From: an uncultured Candidatus Saccharibacteria bacterium | GTDB lineage: Bacteria; Patescibacteriota; Minisyncoccia; Phycocordibacterales; UBA1006 | Assembly (NCBI GenBank): GCA_964601935.1 | Contig: CAZROP010000001.1 | Span: 275,661 to 339,660 of the forward strand | Reading direction: 5' to 3' | DNA length: 64,000 nt | Shown: in pieces, positions 7,932 through 50,000 of the stretch | How positions within the stretch are numbered: position 1 is the stretch's first letter | Layout of the letters: every line of letters begins with the position of its first letter | Translations under genes and position numbers: made by a program | The notes under the pieces: generated by a model | Told to the model about the DNA's origin: nothing | Databases searched by the model: none | Seen by the model: only the letters and a program-made list of their open reading frames with translations

Positions 7932-8753
7932 TTAGCTTTTTATCTCTACACTCTTTGGTCCGAAGAATTTATTCATTACTCTTTTGATTGCATTGGGTTT
8001 TTTCGGGTGCTGTGCGTTAGGGAGAGTTTTTGCTAGTTCAGTTTTGGCTGACTCCAAAGAAGTTTTAAAAGTATCTTCTATCTTTTTTGTTTCTGTCTGA
8101 TGTAAATCACGGAGTTTCTTTACTTCGTCAGGTATAGTTTTGTCCTGGCGGATATCGCGGAATGAAGAATGCGCTGACTCCATTGTTTTTTTGAGTTCAG
8201 CCTTTACTGTTGCTGATGCTACGCCTGATGCACAGTCAGCTTTTGCCTTTGCGAGTGCTGCATCGAGTTTAACTTTCAAATCACTGATGCCAGTAGTTGT
8301 AAGACCTGTTTTTTCTTTGACCTTCGCATCTACTCGTGCGCGCTCTTGCGCAGTTAGTGTATCCACTGCTATTCGCTTTGCTGTTTCAGCTGCAGTCACC
8401 TGGGTGATGAATGTTTCTACGGCTGTTTTCTCTGCGTCGGTCGTTGCCTGTGCGCGAAGAGCTTCGAATCTCTTTGTTAAGTCATTGTTACGCTGCTCAT
8501 GGTTTTCTGACTTTATATCATCTTTTTTCTGGTGTTTATCGTCACGTTTTTCAGAGTGTTCTTGCGATTTTGTATCTACTTTTGTACTAATCTTACCGAG
8601 CATGCTGTCTTTTAATTCAGTGATTTTTGTGATGTTTGTACAGAAATCCCCCTTTGATAATTCAGTAGGTAGGGAAGGGCGTGGTTCTGCAAATGCAATA
8701 GGGCTGATGATGGCTGTTAATACAAATCCTGTAATGATACGAGTTGTTTTCAT
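7932..8753 (-). CDS. hypothetical secreted coiled-coil protein
   Basis: A signal peptide, then a K/E/A-rich helical sequence. Confidence 0.5.
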   Translation of the reverse strand: MKTTRIITGFVLTAIISPIAFAEPRPSLPTELSKGDFCTNITKITELKDSMLGKISTKVDTKSQEHSEKRDDKHQKKDDIKSENHEQRNNDLTKRFEALRAQATTDAEKTAVETFITQVTAAETAKRIAVDTLTAQERARVDAKVKEKTGLTTTGISDLKVKLDAALAKAKADCASGVASATVKAELKKTMESAHSSFRDIRQDKTIPDEVKKLRDLHQTETKKIEDTFKTSLESAKTELAKTLPNAQHPKKPNAIKRVMNKFFGPKSVEIKS

Positions 8754-8785
8754 AAGTGCTTGATTATTTTTTATTAGACGAAAGA

Positions 8786-9193
8786 CTATAGTATTCCATT
8801 CAGGGATACTGTATCAGTATACACGAGATCAGATACTGTTTGTAGTTGATTAATAATAACTGCTGTATCGTCCCATAACTCTGTATTAGTGGAGTGTGAG
8901 GTACTGTTGCTAATAATACTATCCGCACTAGATAATAACGGGTTGTCAGTCGTAGATGTGTATATCAGAGATGATCCAGTTGCGATCAGTACCAGGCAAA
9001 GCGTTGTCACAAATGTGAGCCGACGAATACGAATGATAGAACGATAGGGGGACAGGCGTGGCAGTACACCAGCCTCATTACTATCACGGATAGTAGCAGG
9101 ATTTGTGACAGACTCCATGATGCGCGATTTCAGATGTTCTGGTGCGCGCACTAACTGCGAGGTCTGTTTAATACGGGAGGTAATTGATTCCAT
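8786..9193 (-). CDS. putative membrane anti-sigma factor
   Basis: Lies immediately downstream of the ECF sigma gene and overlaps it. A cytoplasmic N-terminus is followed by one TM (FVTTLCLVLIATG). The start is uncertain: an alternative Met is at 9118. Confidence 0.4.
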   Translation of the reverse strand: MESITSRIKQTSQLVRAPEHLKSRIMESVTNPATIRDSNEAGVLPRLSPYRSIIRIRRLTFVTTLCLVLIATGSSLIYTSTTDNPLLSSADSIISNSTSHSTNTELWDDTAVIINQLQTVSDLVYTDTVSLNGIL

Positions 9194-9695
9194 ACTTTGA
9201 TTGAAATAATTGTTTTACTTTTTGTAATGCTCGGCTGTGAATTTTTCTAATAGTTGGTTCGGGTTTGTGCAGTTGTCGTGATAATTCAGAATAGGAAAGG
9301 TCGTTAATGCTGTGTCCTATGATGATGGCGCGGTCAGTATCGGGTAATTGCTGCAGCATCTCTATTAACTGCTCTATATTGCGCTGCTTATGTGCTAGCT
9401 CGTCAGAGGTATCTGCATCAGATGCTAGATCGCATGCGTTGATATCAACAGGAATAATACGGGATCGTCGTCGGTAATAGTCGGTTATCAGATTGCGGGC
9501 AATGGTGTACAGTGCGCGTATACGGTGTTCGTCAGACTCGTAGGTCTCCCAGCGGGTGTGAACACGTACATAGGATTCCTGGGCGATATCACTGGCCACG
9601 TCACTATTGCCTGTCTTGAAGAGAATATGTCGGTATAATCCGTCACTGCTACGGTCGTAGAAGGATTCAAACTCTGATAACTGGCGTGTATCCAT
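9168..9695 (-). CDS. RNA polymerase sigma-70 factor, ECF subfamily
   Basis: Sigma region 2 (DIAQESYVRVH...) and a region 4 HTH (LSYSELSRQLHKPEPTIRKIHSRALQKV). Confidence 0.75.
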   Translation of the reverse strand: MDTRQLSEFESFYDRSSDGLYRHILFKTGNSDVASDIAQESYVRVHTRWETYESDEHRIRALYTIARNLITDYYRRRSRIIPVDINACDLASDADTSDELAHKQRNIEQLIEMLQQLPDTDRAIIIGHSINDLSYSELSRQLHKPEPTIRKIHSRALQKVKQLFQSKYGINYLPY

Positions 9696-10812: not shown

Positions 10813-11297
10813 ATGAGGGGATTATAGCATATTCAGGTTGTCGACTGGGGGTGTCTCGCTATTCCAAAGAAAAAGGCTGCATAGCGTGAGATTTGCTATG
10901 CAGCGATGACGAGAGTTTGTTGTATGAAGAAAAGAATCGCTTTCTCTAGAGAGATTGTAACATGTTCTGATTTGAATTCAATCTGGATAACAAAAAAGAG
11001 CTTATCCGGACAATACCGCACAAGCTCTCGTAGGAAATCACCCGACTGTTGCTAGGGAGGATCGCATAACGATTTCTCCTAGCTCAGACAAAATTAATAT
11101 AGACGCTATATGAGAAAAAACTTATAGAAAGTATATACCTATGAATGAGTGTGTCAATAGGTAGTCTTTGAAAACCTAACGTTGAGGCTGCAGAGAGGGG
11201 AGTAAGAGACATCACCCTGAAAAGTGACTCCCTCCTAGTCTCCCAAGAGTTAAGAGGGAGGAACGAACGGTTCGGGTCGCGTCGTAGACGCGACCAA

Positions 11298-11343
11298 CCA
11301 AACCCCACCCCTAACCCCTCCCCTTTGCTAGGGGAGGGGAACC
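11298..11343. repeat. short repeat family A copy (ccaaaccccacccctaacccctcccctttgctaggggaggggaacc)
   Basis: Near-identical to 16929..16974 and, in reverse complement, to 16825..16863. It contains a 9-bp palindrome cccctcccc/ggggagggg. Confidence 0.5.
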
Positions 11344-11461
11344 CGAACCACTAGACAAACACATAATCATGTTTCATAATGTACTTCATAAGTTGACACA
11401 GAATTATTTAGTTGTATGGTGAATTTAGTTTACACACTTTATCTCACACTATAAAAACTTA

Positions 11462-11998
11462 TTGGTGATGAAAGCACTGAACAAGGGTTTTGCGTATTTT
11501 TTTGCATTGATGGCTTGTATCTCGCTGATGCTCGTCTCTTGCAATACCCAGTCTGAACTCGTAGACAATTGGGTACCGGGCAATCTTGCTGTTATCAGTA
11601 ATTCTGCAGAAGGGCTGGTTCAGATTCTCGGCGGGAGTCAGGAGACGGTAGTAATTGCCGAGCATGGCAAGAATCGGCTCGTAGGGAAAGAAGGGTCAGT
11701 ATTCGATCAAGACTCGGTTTCTCGTCGTACTGCAATACAAGCTGCCGTTTCATTCCGTGATGCTAACGGAAACTGGCATGCTCTGGATAACTGCCTGGTA
11801 ACCCCGGGTACCAAGAAACAGGACCGCGTGACATTTGTTCCTGTCCTAATGCCGACTCAGGCAGAATATAATGGCTGGTGGCTGGTGGACGAACGAATAC
11901 TTGGCGATACTCCGAACGTCAACTCTTGGAGAGGGGCGCCAAAAGCAGTAAAGACCTCGTATAATGAGGAGGATTACACCAACGAAAAGAACGAGTAA
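11462..11998 (+). CDS. lipoprotein, paralog 1 of triplicated module
   Basis: Signal peptide with lipobox LVSC. The N-terminus MVMKALNKGF resembles the N-termini of 12480 and 13640. Confidence 0.55.
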   Translation: MVMKALNKGFAYFFALMACISLMLVSCNTQSELVDNWVPGNLAVISNSAEGLVQILGGSQETVVIAEHGKNRLVGKEGSVFDQDSVSRRTAIQAAVSFRDANGNWHALDNCLVTPGTKKQDRVTFVPVLMPTQAEYNGWWLVDERILGDTPNVNSWRGAPKAVKTSYNEEDYTNEKNE

Positions 11999-12285
11999 TG
12001 GATCGTGCGCAAATCTGGAACGGAATTAAGAAACGGTGGCTTGTATGGATTGCCTTTGCGGGGTTGCTCTTTGCCGGGTTAATCTGGGGCTGGATACTGT
12101 CATCTACTAATCCAGTTCAAGGCGACCAGTCTGTCCAAATCGTGGGCAAGCTTCCTGAGCATTTGACAGATGCGGACCTTCGCGCTGCTCGCGAGGCCCT
12201 AGGGCAACTTGATACATGGCAGCCACCTACTACGAACGAAGAAAAAGATTCGACCAATAACGCTGCTCGTTTACTGAGTAACTGA
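11998..12285 (+). CDS. small single-pass membrane protein, partner 1
   Basis: The start overlaps the upstream stop (TAATGG). A basic N-terminus is followed by one TM (WLVWIAFAGLLFAGLIWGWIL). Confidence 0.5.
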   Translation: MDRAQIWNGIKKRWLVWIAFAGLLFAGLIWGWILSSTNPVQGDQSVQIVGKLPEHLTDADLRAAREALGQLDTWQPPTTNEEKDSTNNAARLLSN

Positions 12286-12315
12286 ACGACAGATACGGTC
12301 AAACAAGCCTTGCAG

Positions 12316-12378
12316 AATTGAATAGTTACCTCTTGGGTGGCTCTCGATTCTGCAGGCTTTTTATTTTCACGAGTATGT
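12316..12378 (+). terminator. hairpin terminator after module 1
   Basis: gccttgcagaat...attctgcaggc followed by TTTTTATTTT. Confidence 0.45.
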
Positions 12379-12479
12379 TTTTGATGCTTTTGGGTGAGGG
12401 TTTTGAAACCTAATAAAGTATTGACATACCACAAAATAGCGTTAGGGTTAGGTTAAAATTCATCAAAAATATTTGTATC

Positions 12480-13013
12480 ATGAAAGCATTGAAAAGATTA
12501 AACTTCTTTGCACTGATGGTGTGCGGCTTTATGCTGTCGCTCGCCTCGTGCGCTTCTGAAAATGGTGGACTTACTCGTTCGTTGGATGTGAACGACTCAG
12601 CGGATCCCCTCGTTGCCACCCTCAGGGAAAACAAGGGGGCCGTGCGCGGTGCCGTCAAAGAAGTTGGTGAGTTCGAGCGCGTTCGCGTTGGATGTATCGG
12701 CTACAATGCCGAACCTCGGGCCTTGGACGGTATGAGTGTATTTACGGTCCTCGAGACGTTCTACGATACGCTTGCGTATGCGATGGTAGCGTTTCAGGGT
12801 AGTAATGGCGAAAAGTTTTGGTACGACGACGTTCGGGTTGGTACAGATACCAAGCCCGGCACTACTGCGGAATTTGTGATACTTGTAGACGAAGAAACGA
12901 AAGAGTCAATAGTCATCGAGAAAGGACGGGTTCCTGTAAAACTGAAGCGGCTTCGATTTTCAGAGTCAGAGGAGAAGCGTCTGTTGCCCGCCCATCAAAG
13001 AGAACAGCCATGA
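12480..13013 (+). CDS. lipoprotein, paralog 2
   Basis: N-terminus MKALKRLNFF. Lipobox LASC. Same length (177 aa) as paralogs 1 and 3. Confidence 0.55.
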   Translation: MKALKRLNFFALMVCGFMLSLASCASENGGLTRSLDVNDSADPLVATLRENKGAVRGAVKEVGEFERVRVGCIGYNAEPRALDGMSVFTVLETFYDTLAYAMVAFQGSNGEKFWYDDVRVGTDTKPGTTAEFVILVDEETKESIVIEKGRVPVKLKRLRFSESEEKRLLPAHQREQP

Positions 13014-13279
13014 GGTTCAGCGTTATCCGTATAGCGTCTTCGTGGGATAAGCAACGGAAGAAAATTATCTGGATGATGGTCGCTATCTTTCTATTCCTGG
13101 TACTGGTCGGCTATGGCGTATGGTTTGCATGCCAGCCAGCAAAGTGTCCAGCTATTGGAGAAAGGAAAGTCTCTATTGAGCAGGTCATATTGATTCCTCT
13201 TGATTCCAATATGACGCCTGAACAAATCCAGGAATTTCTCAATGCGTCAGGAGAGGTTCGCACATTACCGCAGGATTAA
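13010..13279 (+). CDS. small single-pass membrane protein, partner 2
   Basis: ATGA start/stop overlap. A basic N-terminus, then the TM IIWMMVAIFLFLVLVGYGVWF. The listed ORF 12818..13279 is the same frame extended upstream. Confidence 0.45.
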   Translation: MRFSVIRIASSWDKQRKKIIWMMVAIFLFLVLVGYGVWFACQPAKCPAIGERKVSIEQVILIPLDSNMTPEQIQEFLNASGEVRTLPQD

Positions 13280-13355
13280 GAACGAACGACACAATCAAAG
13301 ACTTGCACTATAGATAGCATCACTGGATGTTCTATAGCGCAGGTCTTTTTCATAT

Positions 13356-13522
13356 TCTGTCTTCCTGGCCTCCAAGCTGGGATGTGCAAAATAATGAGCG
13401 ATAGCGAATATATTTTGCCATGCAAAGCTCCAGAATTAGAAAAACCAACTGGAGTTCTATAAGTGTTTTGAATCCTGGGTCCCAGATCTTCGCCATGGCT
13501 GCGTCTGGGAAGACGGAAGAGG
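13356..13522. repeat. copy 2 (most complete) of MITE-like element with terminal inverted repeats
   Basis: The 5-prime end ttctgtcttcctggcctccaagctggga and the 3-prime end tgggaagacggaagagg are inverted complements of each other (consensus cctcttccgtcttccc ... gggaagacggaagagg). The 5-prime end includes the hairpin tcccagc-ctccga-gctggga. Confidence 0.6.
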
Positions 13523-13639
13523 AGGTGCGAGTGTGCTTGTCTTGCCAAATGTACAGAACAATTCTGTAGCGTGAAAAAACGATTGACATATTATGGTATA
13601 GATATATCGTGAAGGTAATCATTCACATAAAATTCACTG

Positions 13640-14173
13640 ATGATGAAAGCATTAAACAGTTTCAGATTTGCGGTGATGGTTTGCGCTTTATTTATAGCGC
13701 TTACCTCCTGCGTGGGAATAAAAAATGAAATTCAGAGCGACCTGGGGTCAGGTAGCTATCTTTTCGAGGCATTGGAAAATAGCCCTCAATCCGGAGTGGT
13801 ATGGGAGGTTCAAGGCGATACCATTTTGTATATCCAGTACGGAAAAACTATACCCAGGTATAGCGCCCAAAGCCAATTTAAACCTGAAGGAGTAGAAACA
13901 CTGCACTGCGCCCTAGCGAAAGTTTGCTTTCAATTGGGGTCCCAAGAACCAGAATGTATCAGCAATTGCGCTGTTTCTGTGGCTTCGACAAAAGGAGACT
14001 CAATCCCGATGGCTGCTGTTTTTGTTCCACCTTATTCCGGCCAGTCTGGCTTTTGGGTGTTAATGCACGAAGGCACTGTCCGGGGTTTGCCGGTCGGGAC
14101 TATTACGCGGCCGGCAGGCTGGGCGGCAGGAGGACGGCTCAGTCAGGTGGATCCAAAAAACCAACGACCATGA
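13640..14173 (+). CDS. lipoprotein, paralog 3
   Basis: N-terminus MMKALNSFRF. Lipobox LTSC. 177 aa. Confidence 0.55.
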   Translation: MMKALNSFRFAVMVCALFIALTSCVGIKNEIQSDLGSGSYLFEALENSPQSGVVWEVQGDTILYIQYGKTIPRYSAQSQFKPEGVETLHCALAKVCFQLGSQEPECISNCAVSVASTKGDSIPMAAVFVPPYSGQSGFWVLMHEGTVRGLPVGTITRPAGWAAGGRLSQVDPKNQRP

Positions 14174-14481
14174 AGGTGCGAACTGCTAGTCTGCGAAAAT
14201 TGTGGCAGAGACACAAAGCCCGTATACTCTGTATCAGTATTTTGTTTCTGGTGGCAGGAGGGCTTGCTCCATGGGCTATGCGATTATCAGATCTGCCGGA
14301 TGCCTCCTCATTCCAACATCTCTCGCCTGCACAGCGGAGGGCGCTGGATAGAGCCGCAAAAAATGCAAAAGAGCTGAGCTGGCCGATGCCCAAGCAATGG
14401 GGGCGGGATACTGCGGGTCTGTACTGCAATCAGGGTCCTGTTGCTGCCGAAGAACCTCGATTTCAGAGGTTCGGGGAATGA
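14170..14481 (+). CDS. small single-pass membrane protein, partner 3
   Basis: ATGA overlap with the upstream stop. A basic N-terminus, then the TM ILCISILFLVAGGLAPWAM. Confidence 0.45.
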   Translation: MKVRTASLRKLWQRHKARILCISILFLVAGGLAPWAMRLSDLPDASSFQHLSPAQRRALDRAAKNAKELSWPMPKQWGRDTAGLYCNQGPVAAEEPRFQRFGE

Positions 14482-14500
14482 TGAGAGGTAGGTTTATAGT

Positions 14501-14540
14501 AAAAGCTCTTTGGTCAGTTAGATCAAAGAGCTTTTTATTT
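14501..14540. terminator. bidirectional rho-independent terminator
   Basis: aaaagctctttg-gtcagttagat-caaagagctttt plus T-run, between convergent genes. Confidence 0.6.
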
Positions 14541-14579: not shown

Positions 14580-15068
14580 TCACAGTTCCATAATCATTGC
14601 GAGCATGAGCGGGATAGTCAGAATTGCTGATAGGCAGCTGAATATCAGGCAAATGACGATGGCTGGCTTTATCTTGTTGGGCCACCAGTTGCTCAAGACG
14701 CCTATACAGCACAGGTTGCTGAACCCTCCCCCGAGCCCTATGCTAAGTGGATAACATAGCCATAAATCAAACGGAAACTGAACGCAGATCCAACCAAATG
14801 CCAGAACCCACCCTATGGCTAGGAGTAAGCTCGCTCCTGCTAGTATTTGGAGCGCGTAAGCCTTCTTTGTTTTGGGGGCGATGAGTAGCCATGATGTACA
14901 GCAGGGTGCGGTGATGTTTTCTAGTGGTACATCCAGTGTCATCTCATAAGAAAGCTGTTGTCGATACTTTTGTATCGCCAAGCTTGCTGCACTGAATATT
15001 GCCTGGATCAAGAAGACTAGGCACAGTGTCATAGTAGAATAGCGCATGACTAAATCCAGGTAGTACAT
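14580..15068 (-). CDS. hypothetical polytopic membrane protein
   Basis: Multiple hydrophobic helices. Confidence 0.5.
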   Translation of the reverse strand: MYYLDLVMRYSTMTLCLVFLIQAIFSAASLAIQKYRQQLSYEMTLDVPLENITAPCCTSWLLIAPKTKKAYALQILAGASLLLAIGWVLAFGWICVQFPFDLWLCYPLSIGLGGGFSNLCCIGVLSNWWPNKIKPAIVICLIFSCLSAILTIPLMLAMIMEL

Positions 15069-15256
15069 GAGTTGTTATATTATTGGGTGAAGAAATAGGG
15101 TTTATATATAACATATACCTGATAAGGAATCAGTCAAGGGGCTCTCATACATTCACAAGCCTGGGTCTGTTGATAGTTCTATTGCGGGCAGGTGCTACTG
15201 GACGCATACTGCATACAAACTATCTACTTTTGTCACGTTATAAAAAGAGAACAGTT

Positions 15257-15709
15257 ATGAAAAGTCTATTGTTATTGGTTTTGGGTTTTTTGGGTTACAA
15301 CTACAACACTACATCTGCGGACGATTCAGTAGTTAAGGTGCTCCAGTCAGGCAAAATGATCACGGCAGAAGTCATTACTCAGCATGGTGATGAGGCACAG
15401 CATGGAGTTCGTATGCTGGAAAAGGGAAAGGCCCGTACTATGCAGTTGCAGGCAATAGTTGTCACGGTAGCATTCTCCTTGAGTGGTATGCATCACACCT
15501 CCAAAGTGCTGGCGGCATACGAGGAGGGCATCGAGGGAAGTGAAGTCCAGGTGGTGGGAATCACCTGGGATGGGAGTAATTACCAATTGTTGACCGAAGA
15601 GCTGGCACGGGACAACGATCTTTGCACCAAGGTCATCCCGCAGCTACCGTTGGTCCCGGGCTGCTCGTGTGTCACCAGGCCAATAAGGGTAAGAGTCACG
15701 AGGCCATGA
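15257..15709 (+). CDS. hypothetical secreted protein
   Basis: Internal Met with the signal peptide MKSLLLLVLGFLGYNYN. The listed ORF 15083..15709 extends upstream. Confidence 0.45.
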   Translation: MKSLLLLVLGFLGYNYNTTSADDSVVKVLQSGKMITAEVITQHGDEAQHGVRMLEKGKARTMQLQAIVVTVAFSLSGMHHTSKVLAAYEEGIEGSEVQVVGITWDGSNYQLLTEELARDNDLCTKVIPQLPLVPGCSCVTRPIRVRVTRP

Positions 15710-15806
15710 ATTCCGCTGATTCAGAGGTTTCACAACCGCATAATTTGCATTATATATGACCAAAAAAGTCATATTATATGGCAGATTATGCGGTTTTTGT
15801 TGGGGA

Positions 15807-15856
15807 TAGCGACTCCTCCTGTGTCCCCCCTCTAGCTAGAAGGGGAAGACCAAATG
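15807..15856. repeat. short repeat family B copy
   Basis: tagcgactcctcctgtgtcccccctctagctagaaggggaagaccaaa, matching 9814..9855. Confidence 0.4.
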
Positions 15857-15929
15857 TATTGACATTACAATATAGTATTGTAATATATAGGATAGTTAAC
15901 TGATTCAAAAATCTTTAAAATAATACATC

Positions 15930-16724
15930 ATGGGATATCTTCCGCTTATTATAGGGTTAGCTATCCTCTTTGGAGGATCTGGTTACGTTATATATTACCT
16001 TCTTGGCAGACCTCGCCTCCAAGAGATGAAGGCTCGTGACGAGCCTGCTGCGATAAGGTTCACTTACAAGATCCTATTCTTAGGGGCTATGGCGGGCGTA
16101 GCCCTCACAATTTGGGTGCTATACTCTGCAGGGTTAATCACAATGCCTTCTCTAGCCAATGAACAAAGGAACTCCGCTACCGAAGAGCCGTTGGAGCAGT
16201 ATGAGAACGACAGTCCAGGGCAGGTTGCCCAGGAAGCTACTACGAACAACATGACTAAAATCCCGACTCAGATTGGGGTAATACAGGAAGAAAAAAATGA
16301 AAACCCAAAAACTCGAGAGTACACGCTCCCGATGGATGGCAAGAACAATATGATCATCTCGCTCTGTATTAAAAAGGAAGGGGGAAAAGGCTGGAAGGTG
16401 GTCACGCTCAGTATTGCCGACACTCAGACAGTTGTTCGCGACAAATACGCGAATGATACGGTCGAGGAGCCAGTTCTGTGGCTGTACAAGCAGCCAGGAT
16501 GGTTCTCGAGCGCAGATCCTATCTACCTGCGCGAATCGTGGTCCGCTACACTGGATCAGGTTTTTGCAGAGCTGGAATGCAAGTCTCGCAATCCATGGCC
16601 GGAGTACATTCGTGCAGACCATTGGTCTGAAGCAACGGATAGAACGTATCGCTGGGGGAGTGATGCTGTCAAGAAAATGGCAGCAGCCCTGGACGTTGTT
16701 CGTTCCCTTGAAGTAGAGAAATGA
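15930..16724 (+). CDS. hypothetical membrane protein
   Basis: Two N-terminal TM helices. A TTGACA-17-TAATAT promoter-like sequence sits upstream at about 15868. Confidence 0.5.
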   Translation: MGYLPLIIGLAILFGGSGYVIYYLLGRPRLQEMKARDEPAAIRFTYKILFLGAMAGVALTIWVLYSAGLITMPSLANEQRNSATEEPLEQYENDSPGQVAQEATTNNMTKIPTQIGVIQEEKNENPKTREYTLPMDGKNNMIISLCIKKEGGKGWKVVTLSIADTQTVVRDKYANDTVEEPVLWLYKQPGWFSSADPIYLRESWSATLDQVFAELECKSRNPWPEYIRADHWSEATDRTYRWGSDAVKKMAAALDVVRSLEVEK

Positions 16725-16824: not shown

Positions 16825-16974
16825 TCCTCCCCCTAGCAAAGGGGGAGGTTGGGAGGGGGTTTGTTTCTTGCAAGAGTTAAAAAGGTTGGGATTGAATCCC
16901 TTCTACCCCGAGACAGGAATCCCGAAAGCCAAACCCCACACCCTGTCCCTCCCCTTTGCTAGGGGATGGTAACC
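16825..16974. repeat. composite ~150-bp element bounded by inverted copies of repeat family A
   Basis: 16825..16863 is the reverse complement of 16929..16974. Both match 11298..11343. The internal hairpin is gggattgaatccc. Confidence 0.5.
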
Positions 16975-17019
16975 AAAACATCTTCGCACCAGCTACCTTT
17001 TCATGTATACTATATTCAT

Positions 17020-28548: not shown

Positions 28549-31404
28549 ATGTCTGAAAATTATAACGAACCTATCGAAGATGGTGAAGCTCCTGAGTTTG
28601 TAGAAAATGCACCCAAGCATGTAGTAGGCATGGAAGCGTCCAGTGAGCCTCTTTCACAAACACTAAAGGTTATCGAAAGTATTCTGTTCGAAGATCTGGG
28701 TGACGCTTTTCTTCCTGGAACTCCTGCTCGTGAACGATTTGATGAAATAGTGAATGGCGAACAGTTCCAAAATCTAGGGCCAGTATTGCAAAAATTGGCT
28801 GCAGATAGGCGTGATCATAGACGCAATCCGATAACTATTGAAAGTATATATACAGCGCTGAGTCTCTATGTGCAGACAGGGTCCGCCAATAATCGCGTGG
28901 AATTAGCTACGCTATTGGATGGATTTAGTGATGAGTATGAGAAAGGTGGATTACATAAAAGTGAAAGATTGGTGTCCAAGTTGCAGCGATTTGGAAGGGC
29001 AGCCGCGGCAGTATTCACTGGGATGCTCGCACATCCAGCCTATGGCGCGTCAGATATGCCTCAAGCAAGTCCTGTAAACAATGGCGCGCAGAAAACTGCA
29101 TCATTTTCATATGACGCAACAACACCTGCCGGAATATGGAGAGCGAGTGATTACGAGAATACTGATTTAGAAGGTGGAGGCAATGGTAATCCAGAACAGG
29201 AATTAGCAGCAGCAGTTCTTGAGAGAGACAGTTTGAAAGACCAGGTCGCCGAGTTAAGAACAGAATTACAAGGCCTGGATGCTAAAAAAACCGCATATAA
29301 AGCTATCATGGCAAAGAATGTTAAAGGTTCTTCAGCTTGGAAGGGTGCTGACGCTAAACTCGGACCGGTACGTGATAGAATAAATACTATTATACTAGAT
29401 CTAGCAGATTTGAATGGTGAATTAGTAGCTGCACAGGCTAATGTAGATCGTTGGCAGACAGAAGTAGATAGGGCGAATGCGACACAAAATGCAGCAGCGC
29501 TGGCTCAGGCAGAGATACAGAGAATGAATGCCTTGGAAACAGAGGTGGGTACTTTGGTAAAACCAGTGCCTGGTGTATCGAATCGATATGATACTGGTCT
29601 CAAGTCGGGTGAGGATGCAGGGCAGAAAGCATCTGACGCACTGTTTAATATTCAGCAGAGAATGGGGGAAATAGAACAGTTTGTTATTGAAAATGGTCTA
29701 GATGTTCCGCTCAGCAGAACTGATGCAGAGTATGCACTGTGGTCTAGACTGCAGACACATTTGCAAACTCTGCAAAAACAGGCAGATAATGCGCAGCAGT
29801 GGGTAGACAGTTCACAAAAATTAGCAGCAGATCAGTTGGGTATAGCAACCGATTCTGTTGCAGGAGTTCGGGCAGATAATGCAGCAGCAGGTCAGCGCAA
29901 AGATGAATTAGCTGATGCAGAATCTCGCATAAAGAATGCAGCGGCATTGAAGAAGCTAACCAAACCTCGTGAGTTTACTAAAGAGGACGCAAGAAATGTA
30001 AAGCGTAATGCGAAGAACGCCGGCGATATTCGCACAGCAGCAGAGGCCAACATGGATGCGGCATCTATGGATGCAACGAATGCGTTATATGGTGCGTTGA
30101 TGGAAAAGGCACAGTCAGGAACTCTCACTCTTGCAGAATTGAAAGAATTACAAGATATGTTGCCAAAGGTAGAAACAGACCCTGGATTGCGTCTTATTTT
30201 GGAAAAGATCAGGGACCCGAAGACTGGAAAGAAGGAAAGAATGGAGCTACTAAAGATGTACGCACAACAAAGAAGATTCCTCCGACCTGGAGAATATTTC
30301 GATGTCAGTGGACCAGGTTCATCGGGTACTCCAGGCAAGAAGACATCTACCACTGAAACCAAGGTTAAAAAAGGTACACAAATAATCACAGAATCATACA
30401 GTGGTTTGCCGCGAGACCAAGTTCCGCTGGGATTTGTTCAGCATGATAATAATGTGAGAAGTGGTGAATATAGTGCGAATGCTGCAGATAATTACCACGT
30501 ATTATCATATGCGAAATATCTGGGAATGTCAGCGGCAGAAACGAAGCCTACTACAGCACAGGGTGCGATGAAAAACTTGTACAAAGCATTCACTGATCCT
30601 CGTACTGCAGATGACTGGTATTATACTATTCGCGAGGCGTGGGCAAACAAGGGGAGAGCAGATAGCCATACAGGATCCCTGAAGGATGCAGATTTGCGTG
30701 CCCATTTTGATAAGGCTTTCAGTGCAATGTTAAAGAGCCCTGGGAGCATTTCTGCAGAGTTGGCGCGACTTGGTCTGAAAATAGGAACGACGACAGGTAG
30801 AGTAACTCTCTATGGCATAGAGAATGAAAATGGAGGAGTGGTACGTATGATTAATAGTCGAAACGTGCATCCAGGAGAAATGTTCCTAATGACCACAGAT
30901 GGTGATATCGTGGGTAGTTTGTGGTGTATTAATCCAACTATCATCATCCCGACAGTTAGCGGAGAGCGTTTGCGAGAAATCGTTAATACTGCCGATACGG
31001 TTACGGTAACCAATAATCAGTATGAGGAGCTCATAAAATACCGATATATCGAGAATACGGTAATTGTTCAGGGTCAGCAGCAGCAAAGTCGCGTCGGAGT
31101 AAGTGGTAGCGCTAATCTGCACCTGGATCTTGTCCGTATACAGAACCAAAAAACAGGGGCATGTTTCAATGTAGCACGCAATAGATTGCAACAATGGTCC
31201 CAAGGAGATTCGGGAGATAGAGGGCGACCATTGAACGGGAATCATTCAGTGGGGAGTGACGGGGATCGGGGAACTGGGCTAGGTGAACAAATCGGTTCGG
31301 ATGGGGACAGTGGAACAGGTCTAGGTGGTCACAGTAATGGTAATTCGGGTACTCCAGGCAATAATCCAGCCACTAGAAGCAATAATAAGGGGCCGCGGAA
31401 CTAA
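28549..31404 (+). CDS. hypothetical large coiled-coil protein (951 aa) with Gly/Asp/Ser-rich C-terminal tail
   Basis: Intact ORF divergent from pilB. Acidic N-terminus, a long helical middle, and a GDSGDRG...GTGLG repeat tail. Confidence 0.55.
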   Translation: MSENYNEPIEDGEAPEFVENAPKHVVGMEASSEPLSQTLKVIESILFEDLGDAFLPGTPARERFDEIVNGEQFQNLGPVLQKLAADRRDHRRNPITIESIYTALSLYVQTGSANNRVELATLLDGFSDEYEKGGLHKSERLVSKLQRFGRAAAAVFTGMLAHPAYGASDMPQASPVNNGAQKTASFSYDATTPAGIWRASDYENTDLEGGGNGNPEQELAAAVLERDSLKDQVAELRTELQGLDAKKTAYKAIMAKNVKGSSAWKGADAKLGPVRDRINTIILDLADLNGELVAAQANVDRWQTEVDRANATQNAAALAQAEIQRMNALETEVGTLVKPVPGVSNRYDTGLKSGEDAGQKASDALFNIQQRMGEIEQFVIENGLDVPLSRTDAEYALWSRLQTHLQTLQKQADNAQQWVDSSQKLAADQLGIATDSVAGVRADNAAAGQRKDELADAESRIKNAAALKKLTKPREFTKEDARNVKRNAKNAGDIRTAAEANMDAASMDATNALYGALMEKAQSGTLTLAELKELQDMLPKVETDPGLRLILEKIRDPKTGKKERMELLKMYAQQRRFLRPGEYFDVSGPGSSGTPGKKTSTTETKVKKGTQIITESYSGLPRDQVPLGFVQHDNNVRSGEYSANAADNYHVLSYAKYLGMSAAETKPTTAQGAMKNLYKAFTDPRTADDWYYTIREAWANKGRADSHTGSLKDADLRAHFDKAFSAMLKSPGSISAELARLGLKIGTTTGRVTLYGIENENGGVVRMINSRNVHPGEMFLMTTDGDIVGSLWCINPTIIIPTVSGERLREIVNTADTVTVTNNQYEELIKYRYIENTVIVQGQQQQSRVGVSGSANLHLDLVRIQNQKTGACFNVARNRLQQWSQGDSGDRGRPLNGNHSVGSDGDRGTGLGEQIGSDGDSGTGLGGHSNGNSGTPGNNPATRSNNKGPRN

Positions 31405-37501: not shown

Positions 37502-38452
37502 ATGGATACTGATTATTTGCCGTCTACGGGCTTTGTGCGCATAGTGTTCGGTGTTCTCGTTGCTGGGATACTATTTTATGTAATATATTCAGGAGCTCCA
37601 GAAATACGTGCGGTCATATCAGGCTTTTTTCAGCAAGGTAGTGCGGGCTCAGCAGAAAAGAACGAAGATGCATACAGCGATTACCGTACTTTGGATACTG
37701 ATAAAGATGGATTATTTGACTGGGAAGAGTCGCTTTTTGGCACCGATCACACACTAGCTGACACTGATTCAGACGGCACAACAGATTTTGAGGAGTATCA
37801 TGCAGTTTCTGTCGCTCTAGCAAACGACTCGCTGGCTGGTACGATCCCTCTGGGGCAACAAATTGGGGGTGTGTTAGCAGTAGATGCTTTTGACCCGAAC
37901 AATCTCACTGATTCGTTGGCGCGTGATTTATATACGTCTCTTTCAATTGCAAAACAACAATCAGGAGGAGTACTGAAAGAATCAGACACAGAACAACTGG
38001 CAACTATTGCAGCAAAAACAACTCAAGGTTTTTCTATTCGTCAGTATGAGGATGTGGATTTCAAGACTGTTCCAGACTCGTCGCTCGCACGAACAAACTT
38101 CGTAAATGATTTTGCAAAAATCCAACAGCAATCACCTCTGCGTCCAGATGATTTACGCAGGGTGTTACTGGCTATAGAAAATGACTCATCAATTCCTGCC
38201 GATATCATTGAACGTTCAGCGCAGTATAACAAGTTTGTGACGCAGCATTTGTCTGTTCTTATCCCTACTACCAAGCTGCCTGCTTACAAAAACTACGTGA
38301 ATGCCTTGAATCGCTATCTAGAAATGGTTCGTCTGATAGCGTTGAATGATATTGATCCAGCACGTTCGATTGGCGCTATACAGTCCATGGAGAATGTAGT
38401 TCAAAATCTGGATAGGTATATTCAGCAGTTTGCTTTGTCATTTAAATCGTAA
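37502..38452 (+). CDS. membrane-anchored protein with Asp-rich calcium-binding-like repeats
   Basis: An N-terminal TM. The block DTDKDGLFDWEESLFGTDHTLADTDSDGTTDFEEY is thrombospondin type 3-like (DxDxDG). Confidence 0.5.
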   Translation: MDTDYLPSTGFVRIVFGVLVAGILFYVIYSGAPEIRAVISGFFQQGSAGSAEKNEDAYSDYRTLDTDKDGLFDWEESLFGTDHTLADTDSDGTTDFEEYHAVSVALANDSLAGTIPLGQQIGGVLAVDAFDPNNLTDSLARDLYTSLSIAKQQSGGVLKESDTEQLATIAAKTTQGFSIRQYEDVDFKTVPDSSLARTNFVNDFAKIQQQSPLRPDDLRRVLLAIENDSSIPADIIERSAQYNKFVTQHLSVLIPTTKLPAYKNYVNALNRYLEMVRLIALNDIDPARSIGAIQSMENVVQNLDRYIQQFALSFKS

Positions 38453-38453
38453 T

Positions 38454-41400
38454 ATGAAAAAACTTCTTACAATCATTTTAATTACAGTTCTGGGCGCAGG
38501 GAATGTATCGCTCGTTTATGCACAGCCACCTGGATTGCCTACAATCGATATCCCGAACCTTATACAGAATGCATTTAGTGCTACTCAGGATGCCAAAGGG
38601 GTCCTCAAGGAGTTCAAGTTGGATAAAATACCACTTAAAATTGCAAAAAAGCTCTTAGATAAAATGACAGACTCAGTGGTTGTATGGGCTGCAGGCGGAT
38701 TCAAGAAAGAAGGACCAGCATTTATTAGTAATTTTGATGAATATGCAGAAGGGCTCGCAATACAAACAGGGACACTGCTCATAGATGAAATTGTAAAGGA
38801 GGGAGAAGAGTACGCTAGCAAGTCTTTGACTACGGCAGAGCAGCAGGAGCTCAAAAAGTGTAATGATGTCAAAAAAGAATATGATCAGTATTATAGTCTG
38901 CTCGAAATAGCGCTCTTTGACGAAGGTATTGCTGTGGGTGGTGGAAGATTTCTGAGTCTGAAAAGTGAAGGGGGTGTAGCAGAATTTAATACATTCTTGA
39001 ATAGTTTGGGGTATCCATCCTACGTATTAGGAAATGGTCAGTACAACAAAAAGGCATTAAAAACATTTTTAGAAGAATACATAATGTCTGATCCTGTTCG
39101 TTTGCGCGCAACAGGGCTGACTGTAGGATTCGAGCGCATGCAGGAACTAATACGAAAACTTGATGTGTGTCAAAAGACATTGTTTATAAAGGTCACAGGC
39201 TTAACCTATACCAATGATTTGGTAAAATTTATTGGTGAGACATATCGGAATGGTAGAAGAGGCTCTGCTAGTCGTATAGGTTTGCCTAATTTCGAAAATT
39301 TTGGTTCCGAATACATCAAGGCGTTATCAAGTAATTGGAAGTCATTCAAGACTGACGCATCGGCAGGGGGTTGGGCTGCTTGGGGAGAATCAGCAAAGTT
39401 GGAAAATACTCCGTGGGGTGCAAAATATTTAGCTCAAGCAGAGTTATCAAATACACTGGCACAGGAGTTGGGGCAGAAGTCAGCACAGCTCCAGCGGAGC
39501 GGTGGTTTCTTGGATAAGGGAGAGTGTGCAGAATATCGTGAAGTGGAATCATCAGCAGGAAATGAACGTATATGTGTAGATTATCAGGCAAATACTCCTG
39601 GTACCGTGATACGTGAAGCTGTTAATAAGCGTATCTTGCAACAATATGACCAATTGAATAATGCTGATGACTGGACTGATCTGCTCCTTACTACGAGCGT
39701 AAAACTGGTCGATGGAATTTTGCGAGAAGGAGTACTGCCTCTGGCTAATAACGCTATCGACAAGGGTTTGGCATGTCTCGCAGGATCCTGTGATGAAGAT
39801 ATTTATGGAAAGACTAATGTTGCCAGTAGTCAGACTATAACCAATAGCGGAGGGGCTACTATAGCAGCTGACGATGTAGTCGATATAAAAAATGTGTTAT
39901 ATGGACCGTTGGTTTTGGAAAAAGATGCAAATGATAATATTATTTATGAACGCCGTGATCCGAATGGGTATCGCGTCAGGGAAAAACGTAATGCAGATCG
40001 TCAATTGGTAGAATATGTTGCCTATAATGAACAAGCGGTACCTCAGTACCGTATCCGAGAACAGACACGTCGCGTGAATGGTGTCGATACTCTGTATTAC
40101 ACAGCAATACCATTTTCTGGTAGACCGCAGCCTTTTGGTGAGCTGGCATCATTAGAGCCTACTATTACTATTGATTATTCACGACCACAGTATGCGTTTC
40201 AACATGAATTAGATGCAAGTGGTAGTCCACGATATACAGTACTGTACGAAACACATCCGTTGACTGGAGCGCTCGTTCAGGATTATAAATATAAAAAGAA
40301 ATTAGATGCGAGCGGTAACGAAACTGATCTGTACGAATACGACTCATCAGGCAATCGCATTATATTGCGTGATGCAAATGGGAATGCGGTGCTGGATCCA
40401 AATAGTAAGATACCAAAGTATAAACGAGAAAATGGCTCTATTGAATTAGCAGCAACTCTACAGCAGACAATTAGTGCTCAGCACAAGTTTGTAGGAACGT
40501 TGGGTGTTCGTCGTTTGATGGCTCTGGACCAGGGATTACCAGGACCTGATCTGGGATGGGATGGTCGTTTGGATGACAAGGTTAACTCAGCAATCGATGC
40601 GGAAACCAATCCGCGCAAGAAGAGTGCTCTTCGGGAAATATATGATACGGTTAAGCGCACGTTCGAAGCGGGTATTACCGGTAGTACAGTAGATGATACC
40701 GCGTCGGACGTTGTATTAGTGCGTGGCGGAGCTGTGTATACTAATCCACAGTACACATTTTTGGATTTCAAATATCCTGTGACAGGTCCAGGAACAATTC
40801 CAATTGGCCCAACCGGCGCACCTTTGCCACAGACAGGTGTTACTGCGCAGAATTATCAAGCATTACTTAATAAAACATTTCCTAAAAAAATGATTTTGAC
40901 ACGCGCAGATGATAGATCTGTCGCAGAGTACGACGTCGTATCTATGAATACCTATGCGGGTCTATGGTTTAATCCAACTACAAAACAGGTCGAAGCAGTA
41001 GGTAATATTCCAGAAGCACAGAGTATTCGTGAACTTACATTGGCGGTAGAGAGCCAATTCACCGATGTTATTGATACGTATCGTCGTCGTGGAACGACAT
41101 TGCGTACTGTACAGTCAAAACTGAAACAGTTGCAGGTACAGTACGAGTCGCTGCCGTACATTAGCCCTGCTTCAACATTGGAACAACGTGCAGAACGTAC
41201 GAAAAAAGAAAATCAGATAGCATATGAAATTAGCCTAATTCGCGGTGAATTGCCTATTTATGACGATGTGGTAGAGGAGAAAAGCAAGCTCAAGAGTCTT
41301 CTCGTTAATTATGATTTGATGGGGGAGATGCTGATGGGTACTACAGAATATCGTAGTCAGGATGGGTATGCAGTACGGTTCGGGGACTTGCAGCAGTACC

Positions 41401-41981
41401 GAGGCACTGATGTTGCATCCAATGATGTACACAGAGGGTTGTCGAGATATCATGAAGATGCAGCACTCGCAAAACGTTACGAACAACTCTACCTAAAGGA
41501 TAAAATGGGTCTTCTGTACTGTGGTTTCCAAGATCATAGCAAAATTAATACGCTATCCAGTGATATTCGCCAGTCAATTATAAGTGAAATTGTTCAGCAA
41601 GAACGACAATCTGGTCTACGCTCGCTACTATTGCTGAGTCCACTCGCTCTGGGTGTTAATGCAATATTCGGCAATAATCAGACGACTTATGATGTGTTCG
41701 GAGGGTTTGCATCTGTAGGAATAGGTAATGAGGAATATCGAAGTTCTTCTATGCGTCGCGAAACCTATGAGTATACTGTTCCGTATCGCTGCTATGAAAC
41801 AAGCGTAATATGTAACAATGGTGATGATGAGGCGCCTTGCGGTTCGTATCAATGCCCTATTATTGGTCATAACACGCCAGGAGAATCATTCTTAATGGCA
41901 TCTATCAAGGCGTCCTGCGCAGGTATCTATAGGTCGTCTATTGGAGATTATCTAGATCTGATAGACCCAGATTCACGATAA
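38454..41981 (+). CDS. large secreted protein with YD-like repeats (1176 aa)
   Basis: Signal peptide MKKLLTIILITVLGAGNVSLVYAQ. YD-type repeats (DLYEYDSSGNRIILRDANGN). A Cys-rich C-terminus. Confidence 0.55.
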   Translation: MKKLLTIILITVLGAGNVSLVYAQPPGLPTIDIPNLIQNAFSATQDAKGVLKEFKLDKIPLKIAKKLLDKMTDSVVVWAAGGFKKEGPAFISNFDEYAEGLAIQTGTLLIDEIVKEGEEYASKSLTTAEQQELKKCNDVKKEYDQYYSLLEIALFDEGIAVGGGRFLSLKSEGGVAEFNTFLNSLGYPSYVLGNGQYNKKALKTFLEEYIMSDPVRLRATGLTVGFERMQELIRKLDVCQKTLFIKVTGLTYTNDLVKFIGETYRNGRRGSASRIGLPNFENFGSEYIKALSSNWKSFKTDASAGGWAAWGESAKLENTPWGAKYLAQAELSNTLAQELGQKSAQLQRSGGFLDKGECAEYREVESSAGNERICVDYQANTPGTVIREAVNKRILQQYDQLNNADDWTDLLLTTSVKLVDGILREGVLPLANNAIDKGLACLAGSCDEDIYGKTNVASSQTITNSGGATIAADDVVDIKNVLYGPLVLEKDANDNIIYERRDPNGYRVREKRNADRQLVEYVAYNEQAVPQYRIREQTRRVNGVDTLYYTAIPFSGRPQPFGELASLEPTITIDYSRPQYAFQHELDASGSPRYTVLYETHPLTGALVQDYKYKKKLDASGNETDLYEYDSSGNRIILRDANGNAVLDPNSKIPKYKRENGSIELAATLQQTISAQHKFVGTLGVRRLMALDQGLPGPDLGWDGRLDDKVNSAIDAETNPRKKSALREIYDTVKRTFEAGITGSTVDDTASDVVLVRGGAVYTNPQYTFLDFKYPVTGPGTIPIGPTGAPLPQTGVTAQNYQALLNKTFPKKMILTRADDRSVAEYDVVSMNTYAGLWFNPTTKQVEAVGNIPEAQSIRELTLAVESQFTDVIDTYRRRGTTLRTVQSKLKQLQVQYESLPYISPASTLEQRAERTKKENQIAYEISLIRGELPIYDDVVEEKSKLKSLLVNYDLMGEMLMGTTEYRSQDGYAVRFGDLQQYRGTDVASNDVHRGLSRYHEDAALAKRYEQLYLKDKMGLLYCGFQDHSKINTLSSDIRQSIISEIVQQERQSGLRSLLLLSPLALGVNAIFGNNQTTYDVFGGFASVGIGNEEYRSSSMRRETYEYTVPYRCYETSVICNNGDDEAPCGSYQCPIIGHNTPGESFLMASIKASCAGIYRSSIGDYLDLIDPDSR

Positions 41982-45000: not shown

Positions 45001-45227
45001 GGGCAGGAGTTGTGGCGACTGCCGGTGCTCCGTTGTTGGCCGTAGTCGCTGCGGGTGCAATTACTGGTGCTGCAGTGAATGCAGGTCGTACTAGTATCGC
45101 GGACAAAGCTGGTGAGGTGACTGGTAAGGCTGGGGCCGGCTTACAAAATGTTGTCGAAAAACTAGAGCGTGTTGCGTATGATGATTCATTGACCGAACGT
45201 TCAACAGAAAGAATGCGTAAAAAATAG
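42072..45227 (+). CDS. polytopic membrane protein with long C-terminal coiled-coil tail; VirB6/TrbL-like by architecture
   Basis: About 7 TM helices in the first ~400 aa, then ~600 aa of K/E/A/Q-rich helix. The architecture matches VirB6/TrbL/TcpH-like T4SS channel components. The assignment is inferred, not motif-based. Confidence 0.45.
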   Translation: MKRLLVSIALVCALVVGGVVLDIPNIADTPNVYAQGIAEGASLQVGTQSLTPYGACSTGLTGLGDLGCQIGIFFVYGVWFRLTNALATLAAYLADYALWLSVQSNFYRFGDLMIRGWEIVRNFVNIGFIVALLYAGVQLILGKSNGSRILVRIILCALLVNFSLFGARLIIDFGNITARAIYTQIKYSSTPGTEGISTLPGQVRISEAILSTSNPQAVLFSDIGDQADSDFIWKMFTMFFLMGIVNIMLIFVFLSMAILFLTRTISLVVLAILVPIPIVVDLIPVAKSAVQKMKGAGSVFSLENWFTEYWKLSAMAPVYVFFLYLIVIVQSGYSKIQSLQPTGIGFIGSVFTAMLPIIITFFLIKFASKITKDFSGTFGALVTSGLNTVIGMVGGGALGLAARGTRIAGGRLGRGLQRAGALTTEERESRIAAAEAKSGKNSLRARLARNRYSDKNSARLSNVGSYMANTATYDPRQIKNTGTFKKFAGTSVGKKFLNETGQQVVSDIKWGKPIEKSYNVKDKERSHKEEQRAAQYTKDIQKSMDDVTGYRNAQIARTAADSAVGQQRAAEVRVDAALMDDPAALVHQAQKVVNSLPPNATPEQRQAAERDLRIAQIEYRTNARQYSQADIAQAEGEAKRIKDELKSATADYDTAKASGDKELMRTRYQAMEAVKQRLAAAERTVEETKFNKENYSHLSITDMEGSVAMLEANIRNGKEALRVEKEALEREEKKQKETQGVLSKERAALEKRKTDLEKLRAAQVKFMEDKRAAGTVTQEQEDLHTRRMDAFALTEDGINRDDTNLKTQEQKLTLDAANTKSKQDAAKAREKQFEDDKKKADALKKSVEARQKKKAELEKSVEEKTYLYDDSEALQHAKALEELKQKYKKASPEGKQQLLQELGFHADLITKFKEENKDNQVALLSLEKALIGQASLDKEVMQQYIAEQSIERMKNGYRNIGKKVGAALVTTGAVVAGAGVVATAGAPLLAVVAAGAITGAAVNAGRTSIADKAGEVTGKAGAGLQNVVEKLERVAYDDSLTERSTERMRKK

Positions 45228-49945: not shown

Positions 49946-50000
49946 TACTGGTTGACATTCATCATGGCGGCATTTGTTTCTGTGGTATACTATTACCTAC

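Follow-up and report, generated by a model that had tools for sequence, protein, structure and literature searches.

Three tandem lipoprotein and single-pass membrane protein operons as candidate surface complexes in a Patescibacteria genome

Introduction

What is specified by three consecutive copies of a lipoprotein gene, each overlapping the gene of a small membrane protein, in the genome of an uncultured bacterium, and what might such an array do at the cell surface? The copies lie in a 64,000-nt stretch of DNA (hereafter the window) from contig CAZROP010000001.1 of an uncultured Candidatus Saccharibacteria bacterium (GenBank assembly GCA_964601935.1, positions 275,661 to 339,660 of the forward strand), and coordinates below are those of the window unless prefixed otherwise. 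A preliminary description, made from the letters alone, had reported a tandem triplication of a two-gene module, and had proposed diversifying surface or host-interaction systems, or polymorphic toxin/immunity or signalling pairs. The explanation favoured here, which we give an even chance of being correct, is that the array consists of three anciently duplicated, separately transcribed two-gene operons for co-expressed surface complexes, each of a lipoprotein (L) and a bitopic partner (S), in a genome of the Patescibacteria (candidate phyla radiation, CPR).

Three two-gene units of common design

The open reading frame (ORF) list and the sequence place three consecutive two-gene units on the + strand at 11393-12359, 12421-13348 and 13583-14535. 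Each comprises a TTGACA-N16-TAnnGT promoter, a gene for a lipobox protein, a gene for a single-pass membrane protein that overlaps it start to stop, and a strong terminator. The six genes are:

11468-11998, + strand: L1, 176-aa prolipoprotein, lipobox LVSC
11998-12285, + strand: S1, 95-aa N-in single-pass membrane protein, ATG sharing 1 nt with the L1 stop (TAATG)
12480-13013, + strand: L2, 177-aa prolipoprotein, lipobox LASC
13010-13279, + strand: S2, 89-aa N-in single-pass membrane protein, ATGA overlap with L2
13643-14173, + strand: L3, 176-aa prolipoprotein, lipobox LTSC
14170-14481, + strand: S3, 103-aa N-in single-pass membrane protein, ATGA overlap with L3

The tandem triplication described earlier is therefore present with all of its elements: lipoproteins of 176-177 aa (given as ~177 aa) sharing an MKAL... 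N-terminus and a lipobox, partners of 89-103 aa with a basic N-terminus (4-7 K/R) and a single transmembrane helix, and a partner start that overlaps the lipoprotein stop as TAATG in unit 1 and ATGA in units 2 and 3.

The L proteins begin MKALNK..., MKALKR... and MKALNSFR..., followed by a hydrophobic stretch of 14-16 residues, and so have the basic n-region and the h-region of a signal peptide. The h-region ends in each case in a lipobox of the form [LVI][ASTVI][GAS]C, namely LVSC, LASC or LTSC; of the orthologues in the related metagenome contig L001, described below, L1' carries LTSC and L2' the less canonical GTSC. When all six frames of the 64 kb were scanned with a regular expression, L1-L3 were the only lipobox ORFs. 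As all paralogues begin MKAL, the likely L1 start is the ATG yielding MKAL..., rather than the TTG at 11462. For L2, the gene called by NCBI (P0005) encodes 160 aa from an internal Met, so that most of the signal peptide is missing; the deposited annotation therefore conceals the lipoprotein character of L2.

Each S protein has one hydrophobic helix, an N-terminus of 14-18 residues containing 4-7 K/R (positive-inside, hence N-in/C-out) and a C-terminal ectodomain of 52-66 aa, and the positive-inside single-helix topology is found in all five S proteins of the window and L001. The S start codon lies on the L stop codon or one base before it. Coding potential was scored as codon-usage log-odds trained on 13 Pfam-supported window genes, and the proposed frame was the highest of six for all six L/S ORFs. 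The S2 and S3 ORFs have long upstream extensions that overlap L2 and L3 in another frame; these score as non-coding in the S frame, and the S starts are therefore placed at the overlapping ATGs. S1, S2 and S3 are all among the Logan gene calls for three same-strain contigs (L002, L083 and L084). In L001 the S2-like ORF is called, whereas the S1-like ORF, which starts with GTG, is uncalled and present only in the ORF list.

Expression signals

Each unit carries its own promoter and terminator:

11393-11420, + strand: unit 1 promoter, TTGACA-N16-TATGGT, conserved in the orthologous L001 unit
12305-12359, + strand: unit 1 terminator, hairpin then T-run, -31.4 kcal/mol, z = -5.9
12421-12448, + strand: unit 2 promoter, TTGACA-N16-TAGGGT
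13297-13348, + strand: unit 2 terminator, hairpin then T-run, -27.6 kcal/mol, z = -8.0
13583-13610, + strand: unit 3 promoter, TTGACA-N16-TATCGT
14501-14535, + strand: unit 3 terminator, hairpin then T-run, -19.8 kcal/mol, z = -5.5

The pattern TTGACA-N16-TAnnGT has exactly three matches in the window, one before each unit and 31-47 nt ahead of the L start, against 0.19 expected by chance. Across five aligned upstream regions (three from the window and two from L001), the -35 hexamer and the TA..GT of the -10 box are invariant and their spacing is fixed. The terminators stand out in folding free energy when compared with shuffled sequences, which is what the z-scores express, and equivalent hairpins close both L001 units. 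With its own promoter and its own terminator, each unit is therefore a separate transcription unit, in agreement with the TTGACA-type promoter and terminator that had been assigned to every module.

An A-rich box (YAAAAR) is situated 8-16 nt upstream of every L and S start, as well as those of two neighbouring genes, P150 and P264. The box that serves S falls within the final L codons, which would explain the conserved K-N-E tail of the lipoproteins and supports a genuine internal initiation site for S. The K-N-E/Q-x-P end of the lipoproteins probably reflects an embedded A-rich translation-initiation box for the downstream gene.

The genes of the L/S region start either behind a leader or internally, with an A-rich box upstream and no Shine-Dalgarno sequence. 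At many housekeeping genes of the window, a TATAAT/TATACT-like -10 box ends roughly 5-10 nt before the start codon, which suggests from sequence that their mRNAs are leaderless, transcribed from a -10 box close to the ATG. The housekeeping starts concerned include ruvB (10812), a sigma factor gene (9695), dnaE (23442), tsaE (34188), adk (1625), tyrS (17020) and pilB (28461).

Homology among the three copies

Whether the lipoproteins are related beyond their signal peptides had been set as a test of the triplication, and they are. With signal peptides removed, L1 and L3 align at z=10 against shuffles, and L2 is marginal in pairwise comparison with either (z=2.1-2.6). When mature L1/L1'/L3 and mature L2/L2' are compared as profiles, 82 collinear columns match at P=9.7e-5, and the K-N-E/Q-x-P C-terminal tail is common to all five L proteins (three in the window and two in L001). 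The alignment of the mature parts and the profile match thus extend lipoprotein homology to the full length of the proteins.

Conservation is unevenly distributed along the genes. The 30-nt start region is 70-80% identical among the copies, and the signal peptides share 12-14 of 22-23 aa (61-71% nucleotide identity), whereas the mature parts retain only 22-25% amino acid and 37-40% nucleotide identity. The strong divergence of mature sequences within a conserved architecture, as first described, is confirmed by these values.

The homology of the S proteins is weaker. Full-length profiles of S1 and S2 match at P=8e-5, while S3 is the most divergent and found no orthologue in the searches made. 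Features common to the S proteins are an N-terminal Trp followed by basic residues, the transmembrane helix, and a strand-to-helix motif 'LP..(L/M)(T/S)x(E/A)(D/Q)'. The case for S homology rests mainly on position and topology.

An orthologous locus and the age of the duplications

A second version of the locus is found in L001, a 4.7-kb metagenome contig from a different sample and a related lineage. Besides the L/S pairs it contains counterparts of three orphan envelope genes that follow unit 3 in the window at 14580-16724, all co-conserved with the units:

within 14580-16724, - strand: P162, 162-aa multi-pass protein
15257-15709, + strand: P150, 150-aa secreted protein
15930-16724, + strand: P264, 264-aa membrane protein
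L001:888-1184: S2 orthologue, ATGA overlap with the L2-like gene
L001:2541-2792: S1 orthologue, overlapping GTGA start

L001 carries in order an L2-like and S2-like pair (ATGA overlap), a gene for a 160-aa multi-pass protein on the opposite strand, an L1-like and S1-like pair (GTGA overlap), and the P150 and P264 orthologues. The L1 orthologue (P0002) is ~57% identical to L1 (56% in the database search) and the L2 orthologue (P0008) 34% identical to L2; the remaining identities between window and L001 are 36% for S1, 35% for S2, 58% for P150, 27% for P162 and 26% for P264. The order is L1S1-L2S2-L3S3-P162 in the window and L2S2-P162-L1S1 in L001. The pairs keep their overlap yet change order between lineages, and the L and S genes therefore behave and move as a unit. 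Conservation of the small downstream ORFs had likewise been named as a test, and their position, overlap and transmembrane topology are kept in the one orthologous locus.

Since both L1 and L2 have orthologues in L001, the duplications pre-date the split of the two known lineages. They are ancient, and the divergence among the copies is old, not that of a demonstrably fast-evolving system. In every pair of paralogues or orthologues, synonymous divergence (dS) has reached saturation; where the ratio of nonsynonymous to synonymous divergence (dN/dS) is computable, it is ~0.19 (L1), consistent with purifying selection. At strain level, three Logan contigs are 100% identical to the window.

Database searches

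Beyond these two loci, the searches returned close to nothing. A word-indexed search of 5.8 billion proteins with L1 recovered only L1 itself and P0002; a profile of all L copies recovered from the same set only the paralogues and their two orthologues, and with P150 the hits were confined to the same strain and one related contig. When 1.84 billion cluster representatives were scanned exhaustively with HMMER, the outcome was four family clusters, plus three matches at E~2e-5 (P0009, P0010 and P0011). The latter were rejected as repeat-summed chance matches: they are long proteins of near-identical repeats, in which 3-4 stretches each contribute ~13 bits per repeat. Their ~130-aa repeats contain 'F(Q/R)(N/D)xxGxxxxTDNxxxFA', which resembles 'FRDANGNWHALDNCLV' of L1; the match is judged to be chance, by an exclusion that is not rigorous.

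Genome and metagenome scans with L1, with L1 plus P0002 and with P150 found no loci. A hidden Markov model scan covered 1.39 Mb, made up of the window, L001 and 80 RuvB loci (mostly of Patescibacteria), and the only L/S homologues in it were those of the window and L001. Against Pfam, NCBIfam, PADLOC and PHROGs, the six L/S proteins and their three neighbours gave only sub-threshold noise. Matches of L/S proteins to sequences in the PDB (designed 'Pizza' propellers and an RRM beta1-alpha1 motif) were taken as chance and set aside. By the measure of these searches, the L/S family is an orphan, confined to a single narrow lineage. None of the six proteins yielded a toxin, immunity, defence or signalling domain in the four libraries, and the suggestion of polymorphic toxin/immunity or signalling pairs accordingly finds no support there.

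Predicted structure of the lipoproteins

Two AlphaFold2 models, one targeting L1 and the other L2, were computed from a single five-sequence alignment. The L1 model has a mean predicted local distance difference test (pLDDT) score of 56 (core 67-88) and the L2 model one of 71 (core 75-97). Both contain a signal helix, a low-confidence tether of ~20 residues, five long beta-strands in the same order and a disordered charged tail of ~25 residues. Foldseek comparison of both models with the PDB weakly favours oligonucleotide/oligosaccharide-binding (OB) fold domains with long hairpins (the MCM N-terminal domain and ribosomal uS12), at E >= 2.6e-3 and a TM-score of ~0.25. The models tentatively indicate that the L core is an OB-like barrel of five strands, one with no significant structural match.

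Host and genomic neighbourhood

RuvB, encoded next to unit 1, is <=64% identical to GTDB representatives, and its best matches are in metagenome-assembled genomes of Paceibacteria/Nomurabacteria-type Patescibacteria; judged by these matches, the host is a Patescibacterium. The core genes of the window are adk, map, PBP1a, ruvC, ruvB, tyrS, dnaE, rnhB, pilB, polA and ileS. In 24 of the 80 RuvB loci, ruvB, ruvC and tyrS lie within a few kb of one another, and the variable gaps between them are filled by unrelated genes. A 5.6-kb block, made up of the six L/S genes and the three further orphan envelope genes, separates ruvB from tyrS in the window. Because this block interrupts the ruvB-ruvC-tyrS neighbourhood and the 1.39 Mb scanned held no L/S homologue outside the window and L001, it is best described as a lineage-specific accessory envelope island.

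The island is bracketed by an imperfect direct repeat and contains a miniature inverted-repeat transposable element (MITE)-like sequence:

11239-11348, + strand: left copy of the direct repeat, ~110 nt, imperfect
16866-16979, + strand: right copy of the direct repeat, ~110 nt, imperfect
13350-13523, no strand assigned: MITE-like element, ~170 nt, terminal inverted repeats, an insertion between units 2 and 3 that is part of neither

The direct repeat has a 51-nt core that is 82% identical between copies and holds the GC-rich palindrome-like CCCTCCCCTTTGCTAGGGGAGGG, and an inverted partial copy is found at 16830-16859; one same-strain contig terminates at 16842. The repeat could be a REP-like (repetitive extragenic palindromic) element or an insertion footprint. 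Horizontal acquisition of the island was considered and rejected for lack of a composition anomaly, although the direct repeats bracket it: its composition is native. A tRNA scan found no tRNA at the island, Rfam gave no match at the gathering threshold, no integrase was seen among the neighbouring ORFs, and there are no phage genes around it.

The MITE-like element reported between modules 2 and 3 is indeed there, in the 13280-13640 spacer. Its terminal inverted repeats are 14-16 nt long (TTTCCGTCTTCCCA / TGGGAAGATGGAAA), further copies lie at 25154-25274 and 1392-1516 (one of the three window copies is internally deleted), and a fragment occurs in the related lineage at L001:170-200. Three independent short-read assemblies of the same strain all break inside the element, as expected because it is a dispersed repeat.

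The ruvB-ruvC gap of the window holds a cluster with an extracytoplasmic function (ECF) sigma factor gene (7932-9695, - strand):

9168-9695, - strand: ECF-type sigma factor, between ruvB and ruvC

The sigma gene overlaps one for a 135-aa single-pass membrane protein that has no Pfam match and is possibly an anti-sigma factor, and the cluster also encodes a 273-aa secreted coiled-coil-like protein. A link between the L/S units and this sigma factor was rejected, since the type of promoter does not fit.

Further along the window, a type IV secretion system (T4SS)-like cluster at 49974-57731 encodes a PrgI-family protein, a VirB4/TraG P-loop ATPase, an NlpC/P60 hydrolase and a peptidoglycan-binding protein; it is ~36 kb from the L/S island. 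A PilB-type ATPase is encoded at 25975-28461, and very large Pfam-less ORFs occupy 28549-31404, 38430-41981, 42072-45227 and 45875-49945. The isoleucyl-tRNA synthetase (58037-61585, 1182 aa) has an inserted His_Phos_1 histidine-phosphatase domain at residues 534-685 (E = 6.6e-28), an unusual fusion.

A proposed lipoprotein/bitopic-partner complex and its alternatives

Each operon has a sigma-70-type promoter and an intrinsic terminator. Its first gene specifies a protein with a signal of the Sec/signal peptidase II (SPII) type and a lipobox, and the product of its second has a single transmembrane helix between a short basic N-terminus and a C-terminal part of ~55 aa. In the proposed mechanism, L would be anchored by diacylglycerol to a monoderm cell's cytoplasmic membrane, on its outer side, where it may expose a flexible tether of ~20 residues, a five-stranded OB-like beta-barrel of ~100 residues, as modelled, and a charged disordered tail. 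The start/stop overlap would lead to coupled, roughly equimolar synthesis of S as a type-II bitopic protein, whose ectodomain (a strand then a helix) may dock on the L barrel to form a membrane-anchored heterodimer. Three diverged pairs would then offer three different binding surfaces, with which an episymbiotic cell of reduced genome might capture ligands or nutrients or adhere.

Several points weigh against this explanation. The S ectodomains compared alone reach only P=0.015-0.03, with nothing for S2 versus S3, and their similarity is barely detectable. The fold assignment is weak, given the Foldseek E-values, the low TM-score and the five-sequence alignment behind the models. With two lineages known, the conservation statistics are thin. 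Neither Lgt nor LspA is among the window proteins scanned with Pfam, and lipidation is thus a prediction. The interaction between L and S is one that we infer, and the binding or adhesion role is read from architecture and host lifestyle.

Among the alternatives, the units might instead be accessories of envelope housekeeping, acting in membrane or cell-wall assembly or in stress sensing, with L regulating or scaffolding a membrane process through its bitopic partner. The sigma-70-type and probably constitutive promoters, the purifying selection, the nearby PBP1a gene and ECF sigma/anti-sigma-like cluster, and the co-conserved membrane neighbours would all suit such a role. It fits poorly with an orphan family absent from other Patescibacteria among the 1.84 billion representatives and from the 80 RuvB loci; moreover, the cytoplasmic S tails, of 11-18 residues, leave no room for a signalling or anti-sigma domain, and the promoters are not of the ECF type. 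We regard this alternative as unlikely.

A slightly less probable alternative is an array of immunity proteins, in which membrane-anchored lipoproteins and their partners neutralise toxins that act extracellularly. Its model is found in Staphylococcus aureus, where tandem 'lipoprotein-like' Lpl/Csa/TilA (DUF576) clusters occur in the nuSa-alpha island (PMC4470592; PMC10730906), the Lpl/TilA lipoproteins protecting the cell against the type VII secretion system (T7SS) lipase TslA; the tandem lipoproteins are variable in copy number and include an inhibitor of TslA (PMC10730906). The L proteins resemble them in being tandem, diverged paralogues with Sec/SPII signals, anchored at the surface of a monoderm, encoded in an accessory island and better conserved in the N-terminal region, and a T4SS-like cluster is present elsewhere in the window. 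However, they lack DUF576 (no Pfam or NCBIfam match at E <= 1), and each has an overlapping bitopic partner, its own promoter and terminator and a predicted small OB-like barrel. No toxin gene or domain and no T7SS context lies in or beside the island, which is bordered by ruvB, tyrS and genes for membrane or secreted proteins that have no Pfam match, and there is no PADLOC or Pfam match; the T4SS-like cluster is distant. The paralogues are ancient and apparently under purifying selection, not recently variable, and an immunity array would leave the obligatory S partner without a role.

Phase- or antigen-variable surface lipoproteins are a far weaker candidate. The Vsp/Vlp/Vsa systems of Mycoplasma consist of tandem genes with a conserved 5' region and signal peptide and a diverged mature part. 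The L genes share this contrast, with a conserved promoter, 5' region and signal peptide beside diverged mature parts, and they too belong to a genome-reduced, host-dependent organism. Nevertheless, the identity of their 5' and signal-peptide regions falls short of that of near-identical cassettes, the mature regions have no tandem or internal repeats, and every copy has a complete promoter. The promoters contain no homopolymer tract (the sole run is a T7 inside L1), no recombinase, invertible or other switch element was seen, and three independent assemblies of the strain are identical. Variation of this type is very improbable here. Least probable of all is that the S ORFs are spurious or the units phage remnants (spanin-like or for superinfection exclusion), which the shortness and marginal ectodomain similarity of the S proteins and a superficial likeness of a lipoprotein plus type-II membrane protein to Rz/Rz1 might suggest, but against which stand the coding signal of S in its proposed frame, the topology and overlap kept in the orthologues, the Logan calls of S1, S2 and S3 (same strain) and of the S2-like ORF (L001), the lack of any PHROGs match and of nearby phage genes, integrase or tRNA, the native composition, a gene order and sizes opposite to those of spanins (the lipoprotein is here the larger, upstream gene), and the fact that Patescibacteria are not known to have an outer membrane.

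The favoured explanation, of lipoprotein/bitopic-partner surface complexes, also has parallels in arrangement. The MIB-MIP systems of Mycoplasma are tandem two-gene surface pairs, each its own expression unit, and were already multiple in the common ancestor (PMC11213901). The L/S array shares with them a tandem-repeated two-gene surface module, individual expression units, a multiplicity that goes back to a common ancestor and a genome-reduced, dependent host. It differs in having no sequence or domain similarity, no Pfam match and no protease motif, and in size: MIB (an immunoglobulin binder) and MIP (a protease) are large, whereas the L/S products are of 176 aa and about 95 aa. Arrays of genes with SPII signals have also been described beside T4SS genes in Saccharibacteria (McLean et al.; PMC7427843). 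Compared by arrangement, not by sequence, these share with the L/S array a small run of lipobox proteins in a CPR genome with a T4SS-like apparatus; the L/S array, however, has ruvB and tyrS as its flanks and lies ~36 kb away from the T4SS-like cluster. Lpl/TilA and MIB-MIP are the closest systems by architecture, and neither is homologous, the defining domains being absent.

Implications for the Patescibacteria

The L/S operons vary a familiar theme, that of tandem surface-lipoprotein paralogues in reduced, host-dependent monoderms, and the locus is one among many orphan envelope gene families in CPR genomes, where such families are common. It is also a neatly bounded set of candidate surface complexes, whose genes are real, carry their own signals and, in two of the three units, are conserved as units. 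Much of bacterial diversity lies within the Patescibacteria, which live attached to other cells, and few of their surface molecules have been characterised besides type IV pili. In a bolder version, which we consider a long shot, the L/S pairs would be a new class of CPR-specific surface receptors, in which S clamps a lipid-tethered OB-like barrel and three ancient paralogues bind different host-cell or scavenged ligands (oligosaccharide or nucleic acid). Were that so, the L/S pairs would be determinants of the host range or nutrient uptake of an episymbiont. If L and S bind each other and a ligand, the locus would offer a tractable entry to host recognition or scavenging in this lineage.

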